Shown: positions 2,981 through 18,578 of the stretch, piece by piece
Numbering within the stretch: the first letter of the stretch is position 1
How the letters are laid out: each line of letters begins with the position of its first letter
DNA from: a virus
Lineage: Duplodnaviria; Heunggongvirae; Uroviricota; Caudoviricetes
Virus record (IMG/VR): IMGVR_UViG_3300045988_112031
Location: 1 to 33,445 of that record
Reading direction: 5' to 3' (one strand)
Length of the DNA: 33,445 nucleotides
Notes under the pieces: model-generated
Seen by the model: the letters and a program-made list of their open reading frames with translations, nothing else
What the model was told of the DNA's origin: nothing
The model's database searches: none
Position numbers and translations under genes: made by a program

Positions 2981-4059
2981 CAGAACGGGTCCTCCTGTAC
3001 TCTGGCTTTTTTCTTTTTCCGCGCGCCGGGGGCTTCGGGTTCAGGCAGATAAGCATCAGGTGGGCCGACACGGATTTCCGTCAGGGTTCCGTTCTGGTCC
3101 TGAGTAAACGTGACTTCCGAGACAAGCAGTTCGGTATTGTCGAAACCACAGACCGGATCGAAGACAATCACCCGCTGGTTGGGCTGCCACAGCGTACCGT
3201 TACCCTGTCGCCAGCCCTGCACCACATAGGTGGTTTCATCCGTCCGCGCCGCCCGTTGTCGGGCTTCAAAGTCAGCACGCGCAATACAGCCTGCCCCCGT
3301 GGCCTGCCCTGTCTGCCTGATATACATCGGACGGTAACGGGCAATAAATGCGTCCTCTGTGCGGGCCCGCAGCGCGGTGGTGGTGGCCTCACCGAAATCA
3401 TCGTCGTTTCCGGCACGCTGCCCCGCCACCTGGTAAACTGAAAACCGCTCCCGGATACTCTTCTCCGTATCACAGGAAAGGATATTTTCCCCAAGTACCA
3501 GCGCGGTATGTGCCCGCGTTGAGCCAATACCGCCAATCACCAGCCTGCCGTGCGGGTCGTCGTAAGCCAGCGCCTGCTGCTGACCGAGTATTTTGTTGAT
3601 TACCTCAATCACCGTTTCACCGTGATCAGACTGAACATCAGGAATAACACCCGACGGCGCACCGCTGTTCACCACCTCAATGCCGAAAGGCGCAGCAAGC
3701 GCCTGCGCAATCTGCACCAGCGAGCGTCCGTTAAACTGTGTCGGTTCGGCTGCACAGTCAATCAGGTCAGCCGTCAGACTACGTCCGGCAATACCGGTGC
3801 TGACCGAACGGGCATCGTACCGAACGGGCGTCGCCTCCACCCAGCCGGTGATCACCAGCTCATCACCAATCAGCACTTCCACTTTTGAACCGTTTTTAAT
3901 GCGCGGCTGAAGCGTGGTGATACCCTCATCTCCCGGCCACTGGCGAGTGATCTCCACACTGAAATCCCGCGCCAGCCGTTCAATACCGGCACCGATGCGC
4001 ACCGATGTCCAGCCATTCCACTCCCGGCCATTTACCCGTAGCGTGACGTTATCGTTCAT
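2980..4059 (-). CDS. baseplate hub / tail protein (Mu gp44, P-like)
   Basis: 359 aa directly downstream of the DNA-circulation gene, as in Mu (N then P); lysine-rich C-terminus. Confidence 0.5.
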   Translation of the reverse strand: MNDNVTLRVNGREWNGWTSVRIGAGIERLARDFSVEITRQWPGDEGITTLQPRIKNGSKVEVLIGDELVITGWVEATPVRYDARSVSTGIAGRSLTADLIDCAAEPTQFNGRSLVQIAQALAAPFGIEVVNSGAPSGVIPDVQSDHGETVIEVINKILGQQQALAYDDPHGRLVIGGIGSTRAHTALVLGENILSCDTEKSIRERFSVYQVAGQRAGNDDDFGEATTTALRARTEDAFIARYRPMYIRQTGQATGAGCIARADFEARQRAARTDETTYVVQGWRQGNGTLWQPNQRVIVFDPVCGFDNTELLVSEVTFTQDQNGTLTEIRVGPPDAYLPEPEAPGARKKKKARVQEDPF

Positions 4060-6067: not shown

Positions 6068-7900
6068 CTACCAAAATCGGGTATAGCCAACATCGTGATT
6101 TATATCAATGCCACTGGAGCGTGTTTCCGTAACCCGCATACCTGATGGCATATTTATAAATGATACCTTGATCTCACCATCAACTTTTGGCGCGGTAGCT
6201 TTATTAATCATGAAAGGATTCGGGCCTGTGGCACCGGAGGCGTTGTTTGCCTGAGCCGGCTCCACCTCCGGATAAGGAGTGTATCCCCGTGGCGGTATTC
6301 CCGTCCCATAAGCATCATAAGCACCCGCGCCCCACTGCGCCGAGTTAATGGCATCGACCGTGTCACCGGAACTGTCGGTAAACCATTCAATAATCGGCTT
6401 CAGCTTATCCCACATATCCTGAAACCACTTAACAACCGGTCCCCAGTTATTGATCACCATCCCCAGCGGCGACCAGGCAAAAACCTTCTTCAGAAGTTCC
6501 CAGCCAGCCTCAAAATAAGGACTAATGGTTTCCCAGAGTTTCTTAAAATAAGGTCCGACAACATCCCAGTTAGTGATAATTAATCCCGCAGCCAGGGCAA
6601 TCGCCGTCGCAATCATGCCAATCGGCGTCATCGACATGATCCTGCTGACGATACTGATGGCACTGCCCACGCCCATCAATCCCAGTTTCAGAATCGCAAG
6701 ACCGGCAGCAAGCCCGACGACGCCGCGAATAACCCGGGGATTTTCATCCGCAAACTTCGTGAATTTTTCCCCTAACTCCCCCAGCCATTGCGTGATATTT
6801 TTGGCGTCACCAGAAAATGCGCCGCCAATAGCCGCAAGGCCGTTAGTTGCGGTCCCCGTCATTGCCTCCCACAGGTTGGACAGCGTACCAAGCTGTGCCT
6901 GAACACGTTTATTCAGGCTGGCCTGTTTATTCATCTTCTGCTGGATCTGATCGTAGCCATCCTTTCCTTTATCGATCAGCGCATTGACCACCTGAAGGGT
7001 TTCGGCATCATCACCAAACATTGCCTTAAGTACACCAGTTCGTTTAACGTCGGTCAGTTTTCGCAGCTTTGCCAGTTGCCTGAACATGTTATCAAGACCG
7101 CCAAAACTCCCTTTGCCATCAGTAAAATCGAGCTGTACCCCGAGTTTCTGACGGGCCATGACTTTATTGACGTCCCTGATTTTCTTAACGCTTAATCCGG
7201 ACTGGATAACTTTTCGCAGGGCGTTACCTGCCGACTCCCCGTTCATCCCCATCTGATCCATCATGACGCTGATGGGGGCAAGGCTCTGTGCAGCCTGAAG
7301 ACCGTCCTTGTTCACCATCTTCAGAACAGAACTGGTTTTAGTGAAGAAGGACAACATGTTGGTATCGTCAACGCCCAGATAAAACGCCTTCTGGATAGTG
7401 TCGAACAGCCCCATCATGTCTTCTGACGCCGTTCCGGTAGCATCCTGCATCTTTGCAGCAAACTCAGCAGCCGCTTCCGGTGTTTTTTTCAGTTGTACCG
7501 CAAGATAAGCTGTCGCTTTACCCACACCGCCAAGAATGTTTTCTGCCGGGATCCCCTGACGCACCAGCATCTGCATCATGTTCTGGAAATCAGCCGTTGT
7601 ACCGGGTAGCTGGTTACCCAGACCAATAGCCAGTTTATTGATGTCCTGAAAGCTCTTTCCGACCTCACCGTTCGCATCCATCATGGCAACTTTCAGCCCG
7701 GTGGCGGCGTTTTCCTGATCGGCATAAGATTTCAGGGAAAGCGTCAGCCCCGCTGCCAGTCCGCCACCAAGCGCCAGCCCACCCTGTGACGCTTCTTCCG
7801 CCTGGCGTTTAAATCCCCGGATTTTCTTTTGCATTTTCGACAGCGCGGGAGAAAGCCTGTCGACACCGGTGATCAACGCCTTAAGCTCAAATTCAGCCAT
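6068..7900 (-). CDS. tail tape measure protein
   Basis: 610 aa; Ala/Gly-rich helical N-terminus, hydrophobic central segments, W-rich C-terminus; preceded by the chaperone gene pair with a frameshift site. Confidence 0.85.
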   Translation of the reverse strand: MAEFELKALITGVDRLSPALSKMQKKIRGFKRQAEEASQGGLALGGGLAAGLTLSLKSYADQENAATGLKVAMMDANGEVGKSFQDINKLAIGLGNQLPGTTADFQNMMQMLVRQGIPAENILGGVGKATAYLAVQLKKTPEAAAEFAAKMQDATGTASEDMMGLFDTIQKAFYLGVDDTNMLSFFTKTSSVLKMVNKDGLQAAQSLAPISVMMDQMGMNGESAGNALRKVIQSGLSVKKIRDVNKVMARQKLGVQLDFTDGKGSFGGLDNMFRQLAKLRKLTDVKRTGVLKAMFGDDAETLQVVNALIDKGKDGYDQIQQKMNKQASLNKRVQAQLGTLSNLWEAMTGTATNGLAAIGGAFSGDAKNITQWLGELGEKFTKFADENPRVIRGVVGLAAGLAILKLGLMGVGSAISIVSRIMSMTPIGMIATAIALAAGLIITNWDVVGPYFKKLWETISPYFEAGWELLKKVFAWSPLGMVINNWGPVVKWFQDMWDKLKPIIEWFTDSSGDTVDAINSAQWGAGAYDAYGTGIPPRGYTPYPEVEPAQANNASGATGPNPFMINKATAPKVDGEIKVSFINMPSGMRVTETRSSGIDINHDVGYTRFW

Positions 7901-8075
7901 GTGTGCGTTTCTCCTGCTCTATCCTGTTTGCCTGACTGACCAGCAAGGGAATTTCACTGATCGGCATATTCAGCAATTCGAAGGGATTAATGCGCCAGTA
8001 ACTGGCGCAGTCAAAGAAGCGATCAGTGAGGTATTCAGCCGTCAGGCCTGGAGGAAAAAACCGGCCACAAGCCAC
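7893..8075 (-). CDS. tail assembly chaperone, -1 frameshift extension (C-terminal part of the fusion product)
   Basis: ORF in the -1 frame relative to 8042-8311 and overlapping its 3' end; the overlap contains a T_TTT_TTC slippery heptamer; classic arrangement upstream of a tape measure gene. Confidence 0.5.
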   Translation of the reverse strand: MACGRFFPPGLTAEYLTDRFFDCASYWRINPFELLNMPISEIPLLVSQANRIEQEKRTHG

Positions 8076-8311
8076 GCCGCTGCATTCAGGTCTGCCGGAG
8101 ACATCTGGTCGACAGAGCTTTGCGGCACTTTCGCCAGCCGCACAATGTATTTCGACACCACATGCGCCAGAAGTCTGACTGACTCATCCTGATTCATCTG
8201 GTAGGGATACCCCAGCTCGCGGACATCCTTCCCGGTGGGCTCATCAAACTCCAGTACGGAGAGTGTCTCGCCATGAGCAGTAATCGGTTTCTTTAACTCA
8301 AGCTCTTTCAT
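8042..8311 (-). CDS. tail assembly chaperone (Mu gp41-like)
   Basis: 89 aa acidic protein between tail tube and tape measure; 3' end overlaps the frameshift extension ORF. Confidence 0.6.
   Translation of the reverse strand: MKELELKKPITAHGETLSVLEFDEPTGKDVRELGYPYQMNQDESVRLLAHVVSKYIVRLAKVPQSSVDQMSPADLNAAAWLVAGFFLQA
8054..8060 (-). other. candidate -1 programmed ribosomal frameshift slippery site (T TTT TTC on minus strand)
   Basis: Plus strand gaaaaaa; in the chaperone zero frame the codons read ggT TTT TTC; a -1 slip enters the frame of ORF 7893-8075 (..GRFFPPGLTAEYL..). Coordinates approximate. Confidence 0.5.
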
Positions 8312-8667
8312 TACTGGTAATCCCCTTCTTCACCGTGGAACTCAAGATCAACCGTGCCTTCTTCGGCATTATGGTTCGCTTCGCCGTGCAGCCATGCAGA
8401 CGACAGTACATAGACCTGACCGTTCGCCAGCTCGGCAGTGATTGTCATCTCATCAGACGAGGTGATTTTGCTCACAGGAAAATTCTTCGGCACCTTGAAG
8501 GTTCCTTTAACATAAGGCGCACGGTGAGTTTCCTTGCGGTCCACTGAACCGTCCAGGCCGATGATGTCATCATTGACCGTCCTGTTCATGGGCACCTCAA
8601 TGCCGCCGGTCAGCGATAGCTGCTGACCGTCAATTTTGAAATAACAGGTTCCCCCGATACGGGCCAT
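8311..8667 (-). CDS. tail tube protein (Mu M-like)
   Basis: 118 aa immediately downstream of the sheath gene; ATG overlaps the sheath stop (TAATG). Confidence 0.7.
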   Translation of the reverse strand: MARIGGTCYFKIDGQQLSLTGGIEVPMNRTVNDDIIGLDGSVDRKETHRAPYVKGTFKVPKNFPVSKITSSDEMTITAELANGQVYVLSSAWLHGEANHNAEEGTVDLEFHGEEGDYQ

Positions 8668-10163
8668 TATGCGGACTCCTCTGAATACTGAAGACGGAAC
8701 TGGTTAACCACGGCAAAGACACGCAACTGGTTAACATAGTCAGGCGGGAACAGCGTGTTCAGGCGGTTCGGTTCGCTGGCATCACGCTCCACAACCAGGT
8801 ACTGCTTGAACAGTTCGTAGTTTTCCACGATCCCCGCACGCTCAAGCTGACGGTAGGTTGCCAGCAGTTCCCCTTTGATCACCGCCGGGGTGACAATCGC
8901 CTGACCGGGACCAAAGCGGGTACCGTCGCTGGCAAGCTTGTGACGCCCGTACTTACTGGTAATGACGGATTTCAGTTTGCGCAGTACATACGCGCTGGTA
9001 TGCAGCGTCTCGCTGTCGAGGTAGCTGTTATCCGTAACCCCGTAAGCATTTTTCCTGTACGTGGTGACATCACGCTGAATGCGCAGCACCCCGCTTTCGA
9101 CATACGCCGTTGCCACGCCATGAGACAGCAGGGTCTGCTGCTCGGTCATCGTGAACCGTTTCCCCTTCGGCGCAGGCAGCATACCCACCAGCTCACCGGT
9201 CTGCGTGGGACGTGCCGGATCGTTGCGGATAAACACCGCTGCGCGGGCGGTACGGCTTGCCACCAGCTCGTCGGCAGGTGTCTGGGTTTCTTTTTCGTAC
9301 CCCGCCAGGGTAATGTGCTGCTGGTTAAACTGGTCACCTGCGGTCACCAGTTCTGACAGTGTGCCGGTCTTTGCCGTATACACATGACCATACAGCTGAC
9401 GCGCATAGCTCCAGCGACCGCTGGTATCGTTCATCTCGGTCACCAGCGTGTTAACGGAGGCCGTGTCGTTGAACGGCAGACCGATATAATCAAACGGCTC
9501 ATCCGCCATTGCAGCCACCGCGCCGGTGAGAACCGGAGCGCCCGTTCCGGCGGTACCCGTCGCCACAGCAATCTGTACGCCCGCTGGCAGCACTTCGCCA
9601 CCACCAAAGCCGTAGTAATTGAGGCTGACAGGAATTTCATTCCCGCAAAGCCCCTTATGACGCGCGGTCAGCGTGACCACGCCTGCCGAAGATGAAGCCG
9701 TAAACGGCAGGGTCGGAACGGCATTGATGGCATCCTGGATACTGCTGGCAATCATCGTGACGTTATCGCCGTTAGTCACCAGTGCCTGCACGCGGGTACG
9801 TCCCACATACACATTCACCGTGCCGGTTTCGGTTGCCGCCCCGGTCACCGTCAGCGTAACCGTTGCCGCCGCGCCTGTGGCTTCCGGAACGGCAATCACA
9901 TACAGCTCGCCAAACGGGTCAGTCTGGCGATAAGCCTCGACCATACGCGCCAGCTGACTTCCCGCACCACAAATCTGGCGTGCATAGTCTGCCGACGGCA
10001 TCAGCACCAGACTGTTGGCAACAATCTCTGCACCGTTATTGGCGTGACCAATCAGCAACGATGCCCCGCTGTCCTGTGCAGTATTCGCCGCCTGGTTATC
10101 CATTTCCGCATAAAACAGCGGAACCAGCGTATTCGACGGAATGGTGTTAAAGCTTATCGTCAT
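8667..10163 (-). CDS. tail sheath protein (Mu L-like)
   Basis: 498 aa, typical sheath size and position upstream of tube and chaperone. Confidence 0.8.
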   Translation of the reverse strand: MTISFNTIPSNTLVPLFYAEMDNQAANTAQDSGASLLIGHANNGAEIVANSLVLMPSADYARQICGAGSQLARMVEAYRQTDPFGELYVIAVPEATGAAATVTLTVTGAATETGTVNVYVGRTRVQALVTNGDNVTMIASSIQDAINAVPTLPFTASSSAGVVTLTARHKGLCGNEIPVSLNYYGFGGGEVLPAGVQIAVATGTAGTGAPVLTGAVAAMADEPFDYIGLPFNDTASVNTLVTEMNDTSGRWSYARQLYGHVYTAKTGTLSELVTAGDQFNQQHITLAGYEKETQTPADELVASRTARAAVFIRNDPARPTQTGELVGMLPAPKGKRFTMTEQQTLLSHGVATAYVESGVLRIQRDVTTYRKNAYGVTDNSYLDSETLHTSAYVLRKLKSVITSKYGRHKLASDGTRFGPGQAIVTPAVIKGELLATYRQLERAGIVENYELFKQYLVVERDASEPNRLNTLFPPDYVNQLRVFAVVNQFRLQYSEESA

Positions 10164-13412: not shown

Positions 13413-14015
13413 TTACGCGTTAAGAAGGGTCAGGACGCGTTCACGCGCCATACGTTGATTAATGGCTTTCTGTAGCGCGCCGCTGTTGCGCGCCTCCTGC
13501 CATGCTTTCATGGAGCGAACAGCCGAGTCAGCCTCCTGATAGGCAGGATATGTCACAGGACTTACATCCAGCAGACGGGAAAAGCGGGTTATCTCGCGAA
13601 TAACAACCCCGTCCTCATCCTGATACCACTCCTCGCCGTCACGGGCGACACGGAAAGCAAAAGATGACTGGTTAATATCTCCACGTTGCATCGGGGCCAG
13701 CACCAGATCACGAATGGTCTGTGTCTCCGGAGCCTGGATGTCATAGCGCAATCCGCGCTCATCAACTGAAAGATTCAGCGTGCCTGCTGCACTACGCCCA
13801 AGAATAAAATTAGGATCGTGGTTAAACAGTGCGCGTACATCATCACCAAGCACATCGTCAAAAGCGCCGGGCCGGATGATTTCGCGGAATGAACCAAATA
13901 TCAGCTCAGAACGACAGTCAAACACCGATCCATAACCGATAATGTGCGCAGGGTTATCGTCATGCCGCTCAGCACGCACCTCACCGCTGTAACAACGGAT
14001 TTCACGGTCATTCAT
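13413..14015 (-). CDS. prohead protease (HK97 gp4 family)
   Basis: Track ORF 13413-14072; likely start at the internal Met (MNDREIRCYSGEV..) preceded by GAGGGA; between portal and capsid. Confidence 0.75.
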   Translation of the reverse strand: MNDREIRCYSGEVRAERHDDNPAHIIGYGSVFDCRSELIFGSFREIIRPGAFDDVLGDDVRALFNHDPNFILGRSAAGTLNLSVDERGLRYDIQAPETQTIRDLVLAPMQRGDINQSSFAFRVARDGEEWYQDEDGVVIREITRFSRLLDVSPVTYPAYQEADSAVRSMKAWQEARNSGALQKAINQRMARERVLTLLNA

Positions 14016-15234
14016 TGGTTTTTCCCTCATCATTTTTTGGGGGCTTAAAATCTCCTGCCGGGTTAGCAGCATTCACGCTTACCAGCATCTCATCCAGCCC
14101 TTCAACCGGATTCATATCCTCGAATGCGCGGGCCTCATTACGGCTCATCCATCCATCGGTAATAGCGAAGTGATAGAATTGCGCGCGCTCCTGCGGAGTT
14201 CCGCGTAAAAGCCCCGTCAGATTGAACCTGACGTAATACCCGGCGGCTAACTCAGCGCGGGTAAACAAGCGACGGTTAAGCTCCTGCTCCCAGTTCGTCA
14301 CCCACGGCATCATCGTGTAGCGGACAAACTGAATCGCCTGCGCAGAAATATTGGAGAAGGTGGCTTTTTCGAGGTCATTAATCATGTGCGCAGGAATATT
14401 GAAAATACCGGCAATCATTGAACGGTTCAGTTTCATCATGTCAATGATCTGAGCGTCAACTGGCGACACAGTCAGTGCCTTGTAATCCAGATCGGCTGGC
14501 AGCAGCATGGTTTTGTTTTCCTGGCTGCGTAACGCCTGCGATGCCTTCTGCCACTGATCTTTAAGCCAGCCCCAACTGTCCTTATTGAGTCCGCTTTTAA
14601 CGGATACTATCCCCGCCGGACGGGCATTACCGCTGAAGAAGCTTTCTGTGTATTTCTGACCGCTCATCCCCATGCCTATTGTTTCGGCATGTTGCATAAT
14701 CGGACTCAGCCCCATCTTCTGATTATTACCCAGCGCACGGATGTGGATCATATCGTCGGGGCTGATCGCAAACGCCCCATATTCGTTGTACAAACCGTAG
14801 GTGTATCGGCCACCAGTATTCATCAGCGTCGTTTCCCACGGCATACAGCAATCCAGGGATATGACTTCACCGCGACGATTACGTTTCACCCAGGTATACC
14901 CATTCCCCCAGCCAAGGATGTGACGTTGCTTCAGTTCGCGCCATTTGTAACTGGTTTGCCAGGTATTGGGCTCATCATGAACCAGATAAAACGCCGGATG
15001 ATCGCGTGCGGGCTCAACCTTCCCATTGTGCCTGCGCATAACATGCAACGGCATCTGGGCAAGGCTGGAAGACAGGACATAGATACAGGAATACACCGCA
15101 GCCAGTTTCATCGCAGTTTCAGGACTGACATAAACGTCTGCCCGGAACAGCCCATCAGTATCAACGGCATCCCCGGTTATCGGGGTGGAAGGATTCTCCA
15201 GTGATTTACTTCTGAACAGAGCATCAAGCAGCAC
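14008..15234 (-). CDS. portal protein, HK97 family
   Basis: 408 aa downstream of terminase large subunit; GTG start with AGGGGG Shine-Dalgarno. Confidence 0.85.
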   Translation of the reverse strand: MLLDALFRSKSLENPSTPITGDAVDTDGLFRADVYVSPETAMKLAAVYSCIYVLSSSLAQMPLHVMRRHNGKVEPARDHPAFYLVHDEPNTWQTSYKWRELKQRHILGWGNGYTWVKRNRRGEVISLDCCMPWETTLMNTGGRYTYGLYNEYGAFAISPDDMIHIRALGNNQKMGLSPIMQHAETIGMGMSGQKYTESFFSGNARPAGIVSVKSGLNKDSWGWLKDQWQKASQALRSQENKTMLLPADLDYKALTVSPVDAQIIDMMKLNRSMIAGIFNIPAHMINDLEKATFSNISAQAIQFVRYTMMPWVTNWEQELNRRLFTRAELAAGYYVRFNLTGLLRGTPQERAQFYHFAITDGWMSRNEARAFEDMNPVEGLDEMLVSVNAANPAGDFKPPKNDEGKTNE

Positions 15235-15385
15235 GCGTCCCCCTTCTGGCCATAGCCAGTGCGCCCACCAGCAGTAAACCGCCGGACAGCATCAGAGCCG
15301 GAGCCATACCAAACTGCAGGTAAAACCCGCACGTAAGCAGGCCAAAACCAGCCAGCCCGATAACATCAGCAATTAGTGATTTCAT
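15224..15385 (-). CDS. small hydrophobic protein (two predicted TM helices), unannotated
   Basis: Hand-translated 53-aa [56 protein letters not shown]; its ATG overlaps the TerL stop (ATGA) and its 3' end overlaps the portal start. Confidence 0.3.
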
Positions 15386-17115
15386 AGAATTAAGAGAGCA
15401 TCGTCCGGATCAAGAGATGAGAGGAAATCGTCGGGTTCTTTGAGCATTGCCCGACCGATCGCCATAATCAGTGCAACCGCACCATCGATTTTGTTTTCCG
15501 CCTGCTCCTTGACAGGCTTCACCACATCATCGTTACCCGGAATGGTTTTGCCGACCACGTTGCCGATACACCAGGTCATGATGGGATTGCCGTCATGATG
15601 AAAGCGCCCCGATTCAATCGCCGCTTCCAGCTCTTTCATCGGATCGGACATGTTGGTGTAGTTCTGAATGATGGTGATGGGGTTCAGGTCTTCATCAGCA
15701 AGGTCATGCGACAGCCCGGTCGCCCCGAAGGGGTCGATGGGTGACTCACTGACCGGGCTGATTTTGTTCGCCGCTTTGGCCTCCTCGAGGATGTAGCGAT
15801 AATCCACCTCCGCACCAGCGGTAACAGTCAGAACGCCCATTTCCACCCATTTCTGAAAGCGTTCGGCTGTCCGGCGATCTTCATTTTTCTCGACGCTGTA
15901 CACCGTGTCATACGGTACCCAGAAACGCGGGGCCACACTGTAGTAATGCGTTTTACCGTCAATCTCGCGGGTATAAAGTCGCGCCATGCTGTTCATATCC
16001 AGCTTACGCGCCAGGTCAAAGGCCAGAATGCACGGCTGCCCCTCGAACTGCTCAAGGGTCAGTGATTTATCCTCGCAGCTCTGCCAGCTCACCAGGTTGA
16101 AATACGCCGAACGCGCCGACACCCAGATATTGAGGTGTTTTGTTTTAAAGACGTTTGCCAGACGGGCGTTATTTTTCGCACGCTGCTGCTGACTTAACAA
16201 AAATTCGCGATAAACCGACACGCCAATATTTGGATTGGCTTTTTCCAGCACCTGCGGGTCGGTCCAGTCGTCACCTTCATCAATGGTATAGATGATCCCG
16301 AACAGTTCATCGTTGGGTACCGAACCGTTGAGCATCTCGATAACTTCCCGCCGCTTGTCGTAGCACGGCCCCTCAATGTTGTACCCGGCGGTGGTGATGG
16401 CCCACATCAGTGGCTGACGTCGCGCCCCCATCCCGGTAAGCATCGTGGTATAAAGCGCATCGGTGGCGTGCTCGTGATATTCATCCACCACCGCACAGTG
16501 GGGTGATGAACCATCACCAGGGTTACCGATCAGCGGTTCAAACCGCGCACCATCCTCCGGACGGTTCATGTTTGAGGCGTTAACCTCAATCCCGAACGCT
16601 TCCGTCAGCATGGGTGTGCGTTTACACATCAGTCGTGCCGGACGAAAGACTTCCCATGCCTGTTTCTCCGTCGTGGCACCGGAATACACTTCCGCGCCGA
16701 ACTCGTTATCACAGGCAAAACAATACAGGGCAACACCGGCAGAGATTGCCGATTTGCCGTTCTTACGGGGGATTTCGGTATACACCTCCCGGAAGCGGCG
16801 CAGCCGGGAGCCTTTATTGACCCAGCCAAACGCGCAGCAGATCACAAAGAGCTGCCACGGCTCCAGCGTGATGGGCATCCGTTTGAATGCCCACTCACCC
16901 TTGGTGTGCGGCAACAGCTGAATAAATTTCGCGGCCCGTTCAGCCAAGTCCTTGTCGAAGCGGTAACGAAACGACTTACTTTTTTCCGCCATCAGGTCAT
17001 CAAGATGGCGCTGGCAGGCCTGAATCACAAACTGGCAGGCCACAATCTTTCCGCGCACGACATCACGGGCATACTGATTGGCTGCATTTACGTTGGGGTA
17101 AGATTTCCGGCTCAT
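15382..17115 (-). CDS. terL: terminase large subunit
   Basis: 577 aa; Walker A-like [11 protein letters not shown]; follows the small subunit with a 4-nt overlap. Confidence 0.9.
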
Positions 17116-17606
17116 GATTCGATAATTTTCAGAAACGGGTTAGTGGCTTTCTTCTGCCCCGCCAGGCCAATCAGACGCTGGCGGCTGCTGGGGTCGAGTC
17201 CGAGCATTGCCCCCGTGCTGCTCATCTCGGACTCCTGTTCTTTCTTGGCGGTCAGCTCCGGATTTTTGACCATACCGCCCATTGCACCGGTGATGGTGTT
17301 GCCCTGGCTGGCAATATTTTTCACGGCACGTCGCCAGAACTCATAGGCAACGCACCACCGCTCAAGCACCGCGAGGTCAGTCACGCACAGCAGGCCCTGA
17401 CCGCAGAGTTCTTTGGTTGTCAGTAGCCACATGATCGTGGCGAGAGGGAGATTTTCTTCTGCGAACCACTCCGGTGGCTCAACGCCTTTGATGGGCGTAA
17501 AAACAGGTTCATCTTTGTTCAGGGCTCGCTTGCCGGGGTTTCCGGCCAGCGCCTTGCGCGCCGTTGGCTTGGGGCGACGCCCGGAACGCCCCGCCGTTCC
17601 AGCCAT
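17112..17606 (-). CDS. terS: terminase small subunit (P27 / HK97-like family)
   Basis: Track ORF 17112-17615 (GTG start); an ATG three codons in has a well-spaced AGGAG Shine-Dalgarno; basic N-terminus; directly upstream of TerL. Confidence 0.75.
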
Positions 17607-17639
17607 ATGCGGCACTCCTGGTTAAATTTCATTTTTCGC

Positions 17640-17731
17640 GGGTATAAAAAAACGATGGGGCGGGCAGTCCGGAAGACGTCAGGTCACAGGGATTTGACCC
17701 GCCCCTCCCCTCAGACAGTTGAGAATTATTA
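17640..17731. other. GC-rich structured intergenic segment between HNH and terS: candidate cos region and/or terminator
   Basis: 8-bp GC inverted repeat GGGGCGGG / CCCGCCCC enclosing about 33 bp, followed on the minus strand by a run of T; G-rich tracts. In HK97-like phages cos lies between the HNH gene and terS. Confidence 0.35.
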
Positions 17732-18082
17732 TCACTTTAGCCGTTCACGGGCCGTCTTCGCCTTGTGGCACGGCCAGCACAGACTCTGCAGATTACTGTC
17801 GGCATCAGTGCCGCCATGTGCTTTAGGGATGATGTGGTCAACGGTTTTCGCCTCACGCACCACACCAGCACGCAGACATAACTGACACAGGCCTTTGTCA
17901 CGCTTCAATATGCGCGCGCGGATACTGTCCCACTTCGAACCGTAGCCGCGCTGATGACGGGATTGTCCAGGTTTGTATTGCTTCCAGCCTTCGCTTTTGT
18001 GGCTTTCGCAATAGCCTGACGGGTCAGTGGTGGTATGGCGGCAGCCGCGAACACGGCAGGCTTTTGGGGTTCGTTGCGGAAT
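17732..18082 (-). CDS. HNH endonuclease (terminase-associated), no canonical start codon
   Basis: Hand translation: ..PQRTPKACRVRGCRHTTTDPSGYCESHKSEGWKQYKPGQSRHQRGYGSKWDSIRARILKRDKGLCQLCLRAGVVREAKTVDHIIPKAHGGTDADSNLQSLCWPCHKAKTARERLK*. HNH motif is DHIIPKAHGG..N..LCWPCH. A perfect AGGAGG sits 6 nt before an in-frame ATT; there is no ATG/GTG upstream (first canonical start is an internal TTG giving 58 aa), so the ORF track missed it. Confidence 0.65.
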   Translation of the reverse strand: MPQRTPKACRVRGCRHTTTDPSGYCESHKSEGWKQYKPGQSRHQRGYGSKWDSIRARILKRDKGLCQLCLRAGVVREAKTVDHIIPKAHGGTDADSNLQSLCWPCHKAKTARERLK

Positions 18083-18239
18083 GTTATTCCTCCTGTGTAA
18101 TTACTGATTTCATTAATGTAATATATTGTATTGTAAGAAAAATTTGTTTTTTTACAGTGATATATTTTTATAGAAGACTATTCGCTCAAGGTGCATTAAG
18201 ATTAATCTCACCCCCACGAAGAACGTTAAGGATAAGAAG

Positions 18240-18578
18240 ATGATAAAAATGATTAACTGTACTGCTTCCAATTGTGGCGTTGGATACGTTTTTGGCAAAG
18301 GCGTTGATGCTGAGCTAATCAATAGTCACGCAAGAGCATGTAAAATCGGCTTTGTGCAAGCAGGGAATGAAAAAGAATGGTCAATACTGTTGGAAAAGTT
18401 GCTAACCAAAAAAGCTGATTTTGAGTCTTTACTGACTGTATGTGAAACTGTTAATTCAGAAGATAAAAAAAACGTCATATCCAAGTCCAATTTATTTGAA
18501 TATTTATCTCATTTTGCAAATGCTACAACTGTTTATACCTTTCTCGAGGGGTTAGTGAACTCTCTTTTAGCCAAATAA
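18240..18578 (+). CDS. moron-encoded hypothetical protein (112 aa), opposite strand to the late operon
   Basis: AT-rich cassette; AAGGA Shine-Dalgarno about 9 nt upstream; AT-rich upstream region; followed by a hairpin terminator. No family recognised. Confidence 0.55.
   Translation: MIKMINCTASNCGVGYVFGKGVDAELINSHARACKIGFVQAGNEKEWSILLEKLLTKKADFESLLTVCETVNSEDKKNVISKSNLFEYLSHFANATTVYTFLEGLVNSLLAK

Follow-up and report, generated by a model that had tools for sequence, protein, structure and literature searches.

The cohesive end of the Shigella phage SfI is known from sequencing of its virion DNA ends, which were compared with the prophage; this left a 10-nucleotide gap, 5'-TGCCCGCCCC-3', that was assigned as the cohesive end (PMC3636060). 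The same end has been assigned in SfV, and a homologous site is annotated in phiP27, the Stx2e phage that is the type member of the P27 family of small terminases (TerS), where the 10-nucleotide CGCCCGCCCC is entered as "cos-site" (a GenBank misc_feature). In the Burkholderia phage phi644-2, the ends are 10-base 3' extensions with a right end of 5'-CGCCCGCTTC-3' (PMC2920897), and HK97 likewise has 10-nucleotide 3' overhangs (PMC9410871). For HK97, the TerS site CTAACCCGATTTTTT, at positions +15 to +29, comprises a recognized G:C pair beside a bendable A-tract (PMC11331095). Lambda is a more distant point of reference, and cos sites of its type are captured by satellites (PMC6092414, PMC6739421). 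In this sense the site that we describe here, in an Escherichia coli prophage, is already known.

We examined a viral sequence of 33,445 nucleotides (the window), in which an initial annotation had singled out a GC-rich palindromic segment at 17640-17731 as a candidate cos site lying between an HNH gene and terS. The placement was confirmed by Pfam matches on both neighbors, each on the minus strand: the HNH endonuclease gene at 17732..18082 (Pfam HNH, E = 2e-16) and a P27-family terS at 17112..17606 (Pfam Terminase_4, E = 1.4e-20). These are followed on the same strand by terL at 15382..17115 (Pfam TerL_ATPase and TerL_nuclease; 25% identity to HK97 gp2, E = 2e-29) and by an HK97-type portal gene at 14008..15234 (Pfam). 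By Pfam, the gene order is HNH, terS, terL, portal, protease, and capsid, collinear with annotated SfV-like prophages. The segment thus sits in the HNH/terS gap, upstream of terL and of the HK97-family portal, protease, and capsid genes, where a cos site of the HK97 type (HNH-assisted, with 3' overhangs; P27-TerS subgroup) would lie. The remaining window (baseplate, sheath, tube, capsid, protease, lysis cassette, and Q region) is also collinear with relatives. The window holds an apparently intact temperate prophage of the SfV/e14-like type, with HK97-type head and packaging genes and a contractile tail. The HNH protein is 36% identical to HK97 gp74 over 70 amino acids, and TerS is 98 to 99% identical in IMG/VR relatives. 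The region is present in 1183 of 5426 complete E. coli genomes (about 22%).

Two further features were seen on the other side of the HNH gene. An AT-rich gap occupies 18088-18239, and the junction upstream of HNH is hypervariable when relatives are compared. An open reading frame of 112 amino acids (18240-18578, plus strand), situated between the lysis cassette and HNH, runs opposite to the late operon; it has no Pfam match and looks like a moron insertion.

Inspecting the gap between the two genes, we found at 17657..17666 (minus strand) a 10-mer, TGCCCGCCCC, identical at 10 of 10 positions to the cohesive end mapped in SfI. This cosN equivalent extends the left arm of the inverted repeat by 2 nucleotides. 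The flanks of SfI and the window, from a G-rich tract upstream to terS downstream, are identical save for single-base differences. A megablast of the region against phage genomes returned several relatives whose linear GenBank records break inside the HNH/terS gap. We then anchored an alignment of the window, SfI, phiP27, phi644-2, the Edwardsiella phage EPP-1, and HK97 at the predicted top-strand nick, and cross-checked the HK97 +1 position against the published numbering of its TerS site (T16, the C:G pair at 21, and the A-tract at 24 to 29; PMC11331095). The ends of phiP27, phi644-2, EPP-1 (from record ends only), and HK97 all fell in the same register as the cohesive end of the window. Identity to a mapped end and agreement of register with four other phages bear out the initial suggestion of a cos site, and we conclude from this comparison that 17621-17712 is very probably the cos site of an SfV/HK97-like E. 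coli prophage. The 10-mer does lie within the 17640-17731 first proposed, but the functional site extends past the left boundary of that segment, to about 17621.

From the position of the SfI end, the minus strand is predicted to be nicked between 17657 and 17656 and the plus strand between 17666 and 17667, so that 3' overhangs result. The predicted overhang pair is GGGGCGGGCA/TGCCCGCCCC, each 10 nucleotides long, with the ends at 17656 and at 17657/17666. The 3' polarity is suggested by phi644-2 and HK97 and by the fact that the SfI run-off reads left a gap rather than an overlap. Not all published break points within the clade agree: the SfV (U82619.2) and SfIV (KC814930.1) records were linearized at a point corresponding to the window between 17673 and 17674, 7 nucleotides upstream of the SfI-mapped overhang, and so depart from the overhang position that SfI, phiP27, phi644-2, and HK97 support. 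The record ends of SfII (just after the HNH stop codon) and ST64B (just before terS) were judged to be arbitrary linearizations and were set aside. A full-text literature search for the overhang strings gave irrelevant matches only.

Among the closest known systems, the Shigella serotype-converting phages SfI, SfV, SfII, and SfIV share the identical 10-mer, near-identical flanks from the G-tract to terS, and the order HNH, cos, terS, terL. SfI has a G at +1 where the window has an A, and there is a C/T difference in the spacer upstream of the overhang; across the Shigella SfI group, the linker between HNH and cos and the region upstream of HNH differ from those of the window, whose HNH gene starts with ATT. 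phiP27 agrees in architecture and register; it has GGGGAGGGGCGGGTCAAATCCCTG upstream and a 24-nucleotide spacer that ends in GGGAC, but its overhang is CGCCCGCCCC, its left side reads CACCCGCGAAATTAAAAATTT, and its TerS is 49% identical to that of the window. The Burkholderia phages phiE125 and phi644-2 have 10-base 3' extensions in register, a P27-family TerS together with an HNH protein, and the left side GCCCGCGAAAAATGAAATTTAA. These two are siphoviruses of a different host, however, and phi644-2 carries the overhang CGCCCGCTTC, GGGGAGGGGGGTGAAAAA in place of the G-tract and TCAAATC, and a TerS of 54% identity. In EPP-1, TerS is 89% identical to the TerS of the window outside an internal 37-amino-acid direct duplication of the N-terminal basic arm; its terS (L095, 48-653) is annotated as encoding 201 amino acids.

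HK97 agrees with the window in having cos between HNH (gp74) and terS, a 10-nucleotide 3' overhang, and, in the same columns, a G-tract, an identical TCAAATC, a 24-nucleotide spacer, and GAC before the overhang. In an ungapped comparison of the 60 nucleotides ending at the nick, 30 of 60 positions matched, against a mean of 14.8 (standard deviation, 3.6; maximum, 26) at about 670 other offsets. The left side of HK97 does not align with that of the window (13/40), its overhang is CGCCGCCAAA, and it is without the inverted repeat. The TerS of the window could not be related to HK97 gp1 by BLASTP, Pfam, or PDB sequence searches, and the two belong to different Pfam families. Protein homology thus parallels the DNA: TerL, HNH, and the right side are HK97-like, while TerS and the left side are not. 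We dropped a transfer of the HK97 gp1 cryo-EM model of DNA binding, since the TerS sequences are unrelated. Lambda resembles the window in general plan, with a nicking site, downstream small-terminase sites beside terS, and an upstream element needed for termination, but it has 12-nucleotide 5' overhangs, the Nu1/gpA terminase, no HNH partner, and unrelated sequence.

Read in the gene direction, the site of the window has the order GAGGGGAGGGGCGGG-TCAAATC-CCTGTGACCTGACGTCTTCCGGAC-TGCCCGCCCC-ATCGTTTTTTT-ATACCCGCGAAAAATGAAATTTAAC-CAGGAG-(8 nucleotides)-ATG of terS. The G-tract GAGGGGAGGGGCGGG (17698..17712, minus strand), which contains the right arm of the inverted repeat, accounts for the G-rich sequence seen in the initial annotation; a G-rich tract is found in every family member at the same position, including HK97, phi644-2, and EPP-1, and it is retained in satellites. 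By analogy we regard it as a candidate upstream cos element, possibly cosQ-like. The adjoining TCAAATC motif (17691..17697, minus strand) lines up column for column between the window and SfI, phiP27, and HK97. Then comes a spacer of 24 nucleotides (17667..17690, minus strand) that is variable in sequence and fixed in length, HK97 included, and ends in GGAC just 5' of the overhang.

We examined conservation in two samples of relatives. In the IMG/VR relatives, which gave 56 distinct upstream sequences, the stretch from the GGAC spacer end to terS was nearly invariant, even where the 3' end of HNH was only about 75% identical; most of the spacer varied, and the G-tract varied moderately. The second sample was picked on the left-side motif CCGCGAAAAATGAAATTTAA alone and comprised 67 distinct sites, among which 15 different 10-mers occur as the overhang. 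All 67 had a G-tract, a (T/A)(C/A)AAATC-like motif of high information content, GAC or TAC at the end of the spacer, and YGC as the first three bases of the 10-mer. The fixed spacer length held across both alignments, and the cos core of the window is the commonest allele among relatives.

Downstream of the cut lies a run of seven T's, at +5 to +11 when counted from the left end of the genome (17646..17652, minus strand). It is the T-run of the initial annotation, present as A7 on the plus strand, and a T-run is kept in most family members. Next to it, ATACCCGCGAAAAATGAAATTTAAC spans +12 to +36 (17621..17645, minus strand). In this downstream part of the site, phages of hosts as far apart as E. 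coli and Burkholderia have kept CCGCGAAAAATGAAATTTAA, probably the sequence that TerS binds, and ATACCCGCGAAAAATGAAATTTAAC is about 90% identical over 29 nucleotides in Edwardsiella, Vibrio, and Burkholderia phages, despite the modest TerS identities of phiP27 and phi644-2. The window has ACCCGCG and then A5 at +14 to +25, close to the positions of the HK97 TerS site. From this likeness in position and composition, ATACCCGCGAAAAATGAAATTTAAC is probably the best candidate for a TerS-binding, cosB-like site. Because TerS is unrelated to HK97 gp1, the assignment stays an analogy.

The feature that had first drawn attention to the segment is its inverted repeat. A repeat search recovered the reported 8-bp GC repeat, with arms GGGGCGGG (17657-17664) and CCCGCCCC (17698-17705) that are 100% complementary over 8 nucleotides and enclose 33. 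When composition is disregarded, the window has 55 perfect 8-bp inverted repeats with loops of 3 to 40 nucleotides, whereas dinucleotide shuffles have 20.7 ± 5.5. Among the 55, only this one consists of G and C alone; such repeats averaged 0.07 in the shuffles, 5% of which had at least one. Taken alone, the repeat is only marginally unusual and is weak evidence; the decisive support for cos is comparative and not statistical. Together with the T-run, it could instead form an intrinsic terminator that ends the HNH gene, with cos located elsewhere or the segment serving a dual role. The sense-strand RNA would read GGGGCGGG, 33 nucleotides, CCCGCCCC, AUCG, and U7, so that the arms pair and U7 follows 4 nucleotides on. 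However, a terminator scan made no call with this loop of 33 nucleotides, the RNA fold was no more stable than shuffles (z = -1.29), and there was no Rfam match. The stem is also not conserved: it is broken without compensation in the GGGGGAGG lineages and absent in HK97 and EPP-1, and in phiP27 and phi644-2 GTCAAA splits the T-run from the C-rich arm. Moreover, late transcription has to read through into terS. We therefore rejected the segment as a Rho-independent terminator and consider such a role highly improbable. The repeat might also be functional in itself, as symmetric half-sites or a cruciform for a dimeric terminase/HNH complex. Its arms lie 41 bp apart from center to center, about four helical turns, and an 8-bp repeat between G-tract and overhang occurs in 31 of the 67 distinct family members; in the divergent member L193, a different overhang, CGCGCCCTCC, is likewise complementary to its own G-tract. 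But in the other 36 members complementarity is 6 nucleotides or less, and these include 6 of the 35 that have the TGCCCGCCCC overhang, with G-tracts such as GGGGGAGG or GGGGGTAG. The nick-anchored alignment showed no inverted repeat at the HK97 and EPP-1 cos sites, and the fold of the DNA (z = -1.25) does not support structured DNA or a cruciform. Composition alone makes a G-rich tract partly complementary to a C-rich overhang that it faces. We thus judge a function of the repeat as such to be unlikely, though a role within the subclade of the window is conceivable; the palindrome is probably a by-product of the G-tract element facing the C-rich overhang and not a recognition feature. The initial placement of cos at this segment is supported, but the predicted cut falls at one arm and not at the center, and the palindrome is not conserved across the family.

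Two other readings accept the packaging context and differ over how, or whether, the site is used. Headful packaging from a pac site would fit the generic position upstream of terS, and we found nothing more specific in its favor. Against it, TerL is HK97-like rather than of a headful type, the relatives have defined 10-nucleotide cohesive ends where pac phages would have permuted, redundant ones, and an adjoining HNH gene is typical of HK97-type cos systems (PMC9410871, PMC3592412). The pac reading was rejected on these grounds, and we give it next to no credence. The other reading is that the site is cos by descent but is not used, the prophage being cryptic or defective in packaging, for example through poor expression of HNH. 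The HNH gene of the window begins with ATT at 18080-18082 (minus strand), whereas all relatives read at this start have ATG: a motif search gave 40 IMG/VR loci, inspection by eye gave six more, and an annotated E. coli prophage makes one further case. An ATT start could lower the supply of HNH and therefore cos cleavage. On the other hand, the ATT lies 6 nucleotides after a strong AGGAGG. At least 12 complete E. coli genomes have this upstream junction as well; both of those examined have the ATT, and PGAP annotates an intact coding sequence with an ATT start in each. The packaging, head, tail, and lysis reading frames are all long, uninterrupted, and collinear with those of intact relatives, and the commonest cos allele has been kept. 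Disuse thus seems to us a minor possibility, and a working cos site with its cut at TGCCCGCCCC remains the preferred reading.

On this preferred reading, packaging would begin with DNA produced by rolling-circle replication, in which the site would be recognized by the P27-family TerS with TerL, and the adjacent HNH endonuclease would assist. TerS would bind downstream of the cut, at ATACCCGCGAAAAATGAAATTTAAC. TerL and HNH would then nick twice, 10 nucleotides apart, on either side of TGCCCGCCCC, at the position given by the mapped ends of relatives, to yield virion DNA with 10-nucleotide cohesive ends of presumably 3' polarity. By analogy with HK97 and lambda, packaging would proceed from the new left end, whose first base is 17656, through terS, terL, and portal, and it would stop at the next cos in the concatemer. 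The upstream G-tract and TCAAATC may act in a cosQ-like manner or position TerL and HNH.

This upstream element lies 25 to 46 nucleotides (-35 to -56) from the top-strand nick and outside the -20 to +80 fragment used in HK97 TerS-binding studies. While most E. coli matches cover more, a minority cover 17627-17709 alone. In the two that we examined, both PICI-like satellites, nothing was shared with the phage on either flank, so that this 83-bp core is the only sequence common to phage and satellites. It spans the G-tract to GAAAAATGAAA, so both arms of the repeat travel together with the overhang, the T-run, and the greater part of the cosB-like motif. The shared stretch delimits the functional cos unit, as expected of a helper cos captured by satellites. 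We tentatively propose, at somewhat less than even confidence, that the G-tract and TCAAATC form a conserved, uncharacterized functional element of HK97-type sites, which would act like cosQ in termination or position TerL and HNH for the second nick, and that the 83-bp unit is a portable module captured by satellites.

The two satellites, L005 (NZ_CP042973) and L006 (NZ_CM135151), each carry the core at 8001-8083, at the end of the island beside clpS. Their genes encode a primase, an Icd-like protein, SSB, a capsid protein or protease-capsid fusion, and a Nu1-like or DUF1441 protein. Of 5426 complete E. coli genomes, 44 have a satellite-type context, taken as a match to at least 80% of a 481-bp query. 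At about 9293 on the minus strand, upstream of a Phage_Nu1-family gene at 8617-9159, L006 has in addition a cos of the lambda type, in which GGGCGGCGATCT precedes CGCGGGTTTTCGCTATTTATGA and which differs from lambda cosN by one mismatch. This satellite thus combines two unrelated cos types, the lambda type with 12-nucleotide 5' ends and the SfV/HK97 type with 10-nucleotide 3' ends; in L005, no lambda cosN was found within 2 mismatches. If the core is indeed a portable module, L006 could exploit two unrelated helper packaging systems. A different arrangement was seen in the viral record IMGVR_UViG_2711768073_000020 (L114), where cos and terS occur twice in the same orientation, 2.9 kb apart (3556-3575 and 6427-6446), with an IS3-family transposase (rve, HTH_Tnp_1) between the copies. 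The packaging regions of two related prophages seem to have been joined or duplicated there through the IS element.

Our general understanding of phage packaging is unchanged by this site. The leads that it offers are modest: an upstream element common to HK97 and the window, and cos-carrying satellites, one of which has a lambda-type cos too. For the prophage type found in about 22% of complete E. coli genomes, the assignment would fix the ends of the virion genome and the direction of packaging, and it gives a precise 10-mer and an architecture with which the same site can be found in other genomes. It would also flag DNA that SfV-type helpers may mobilize, namely, satellites and any other element that carries this cos.
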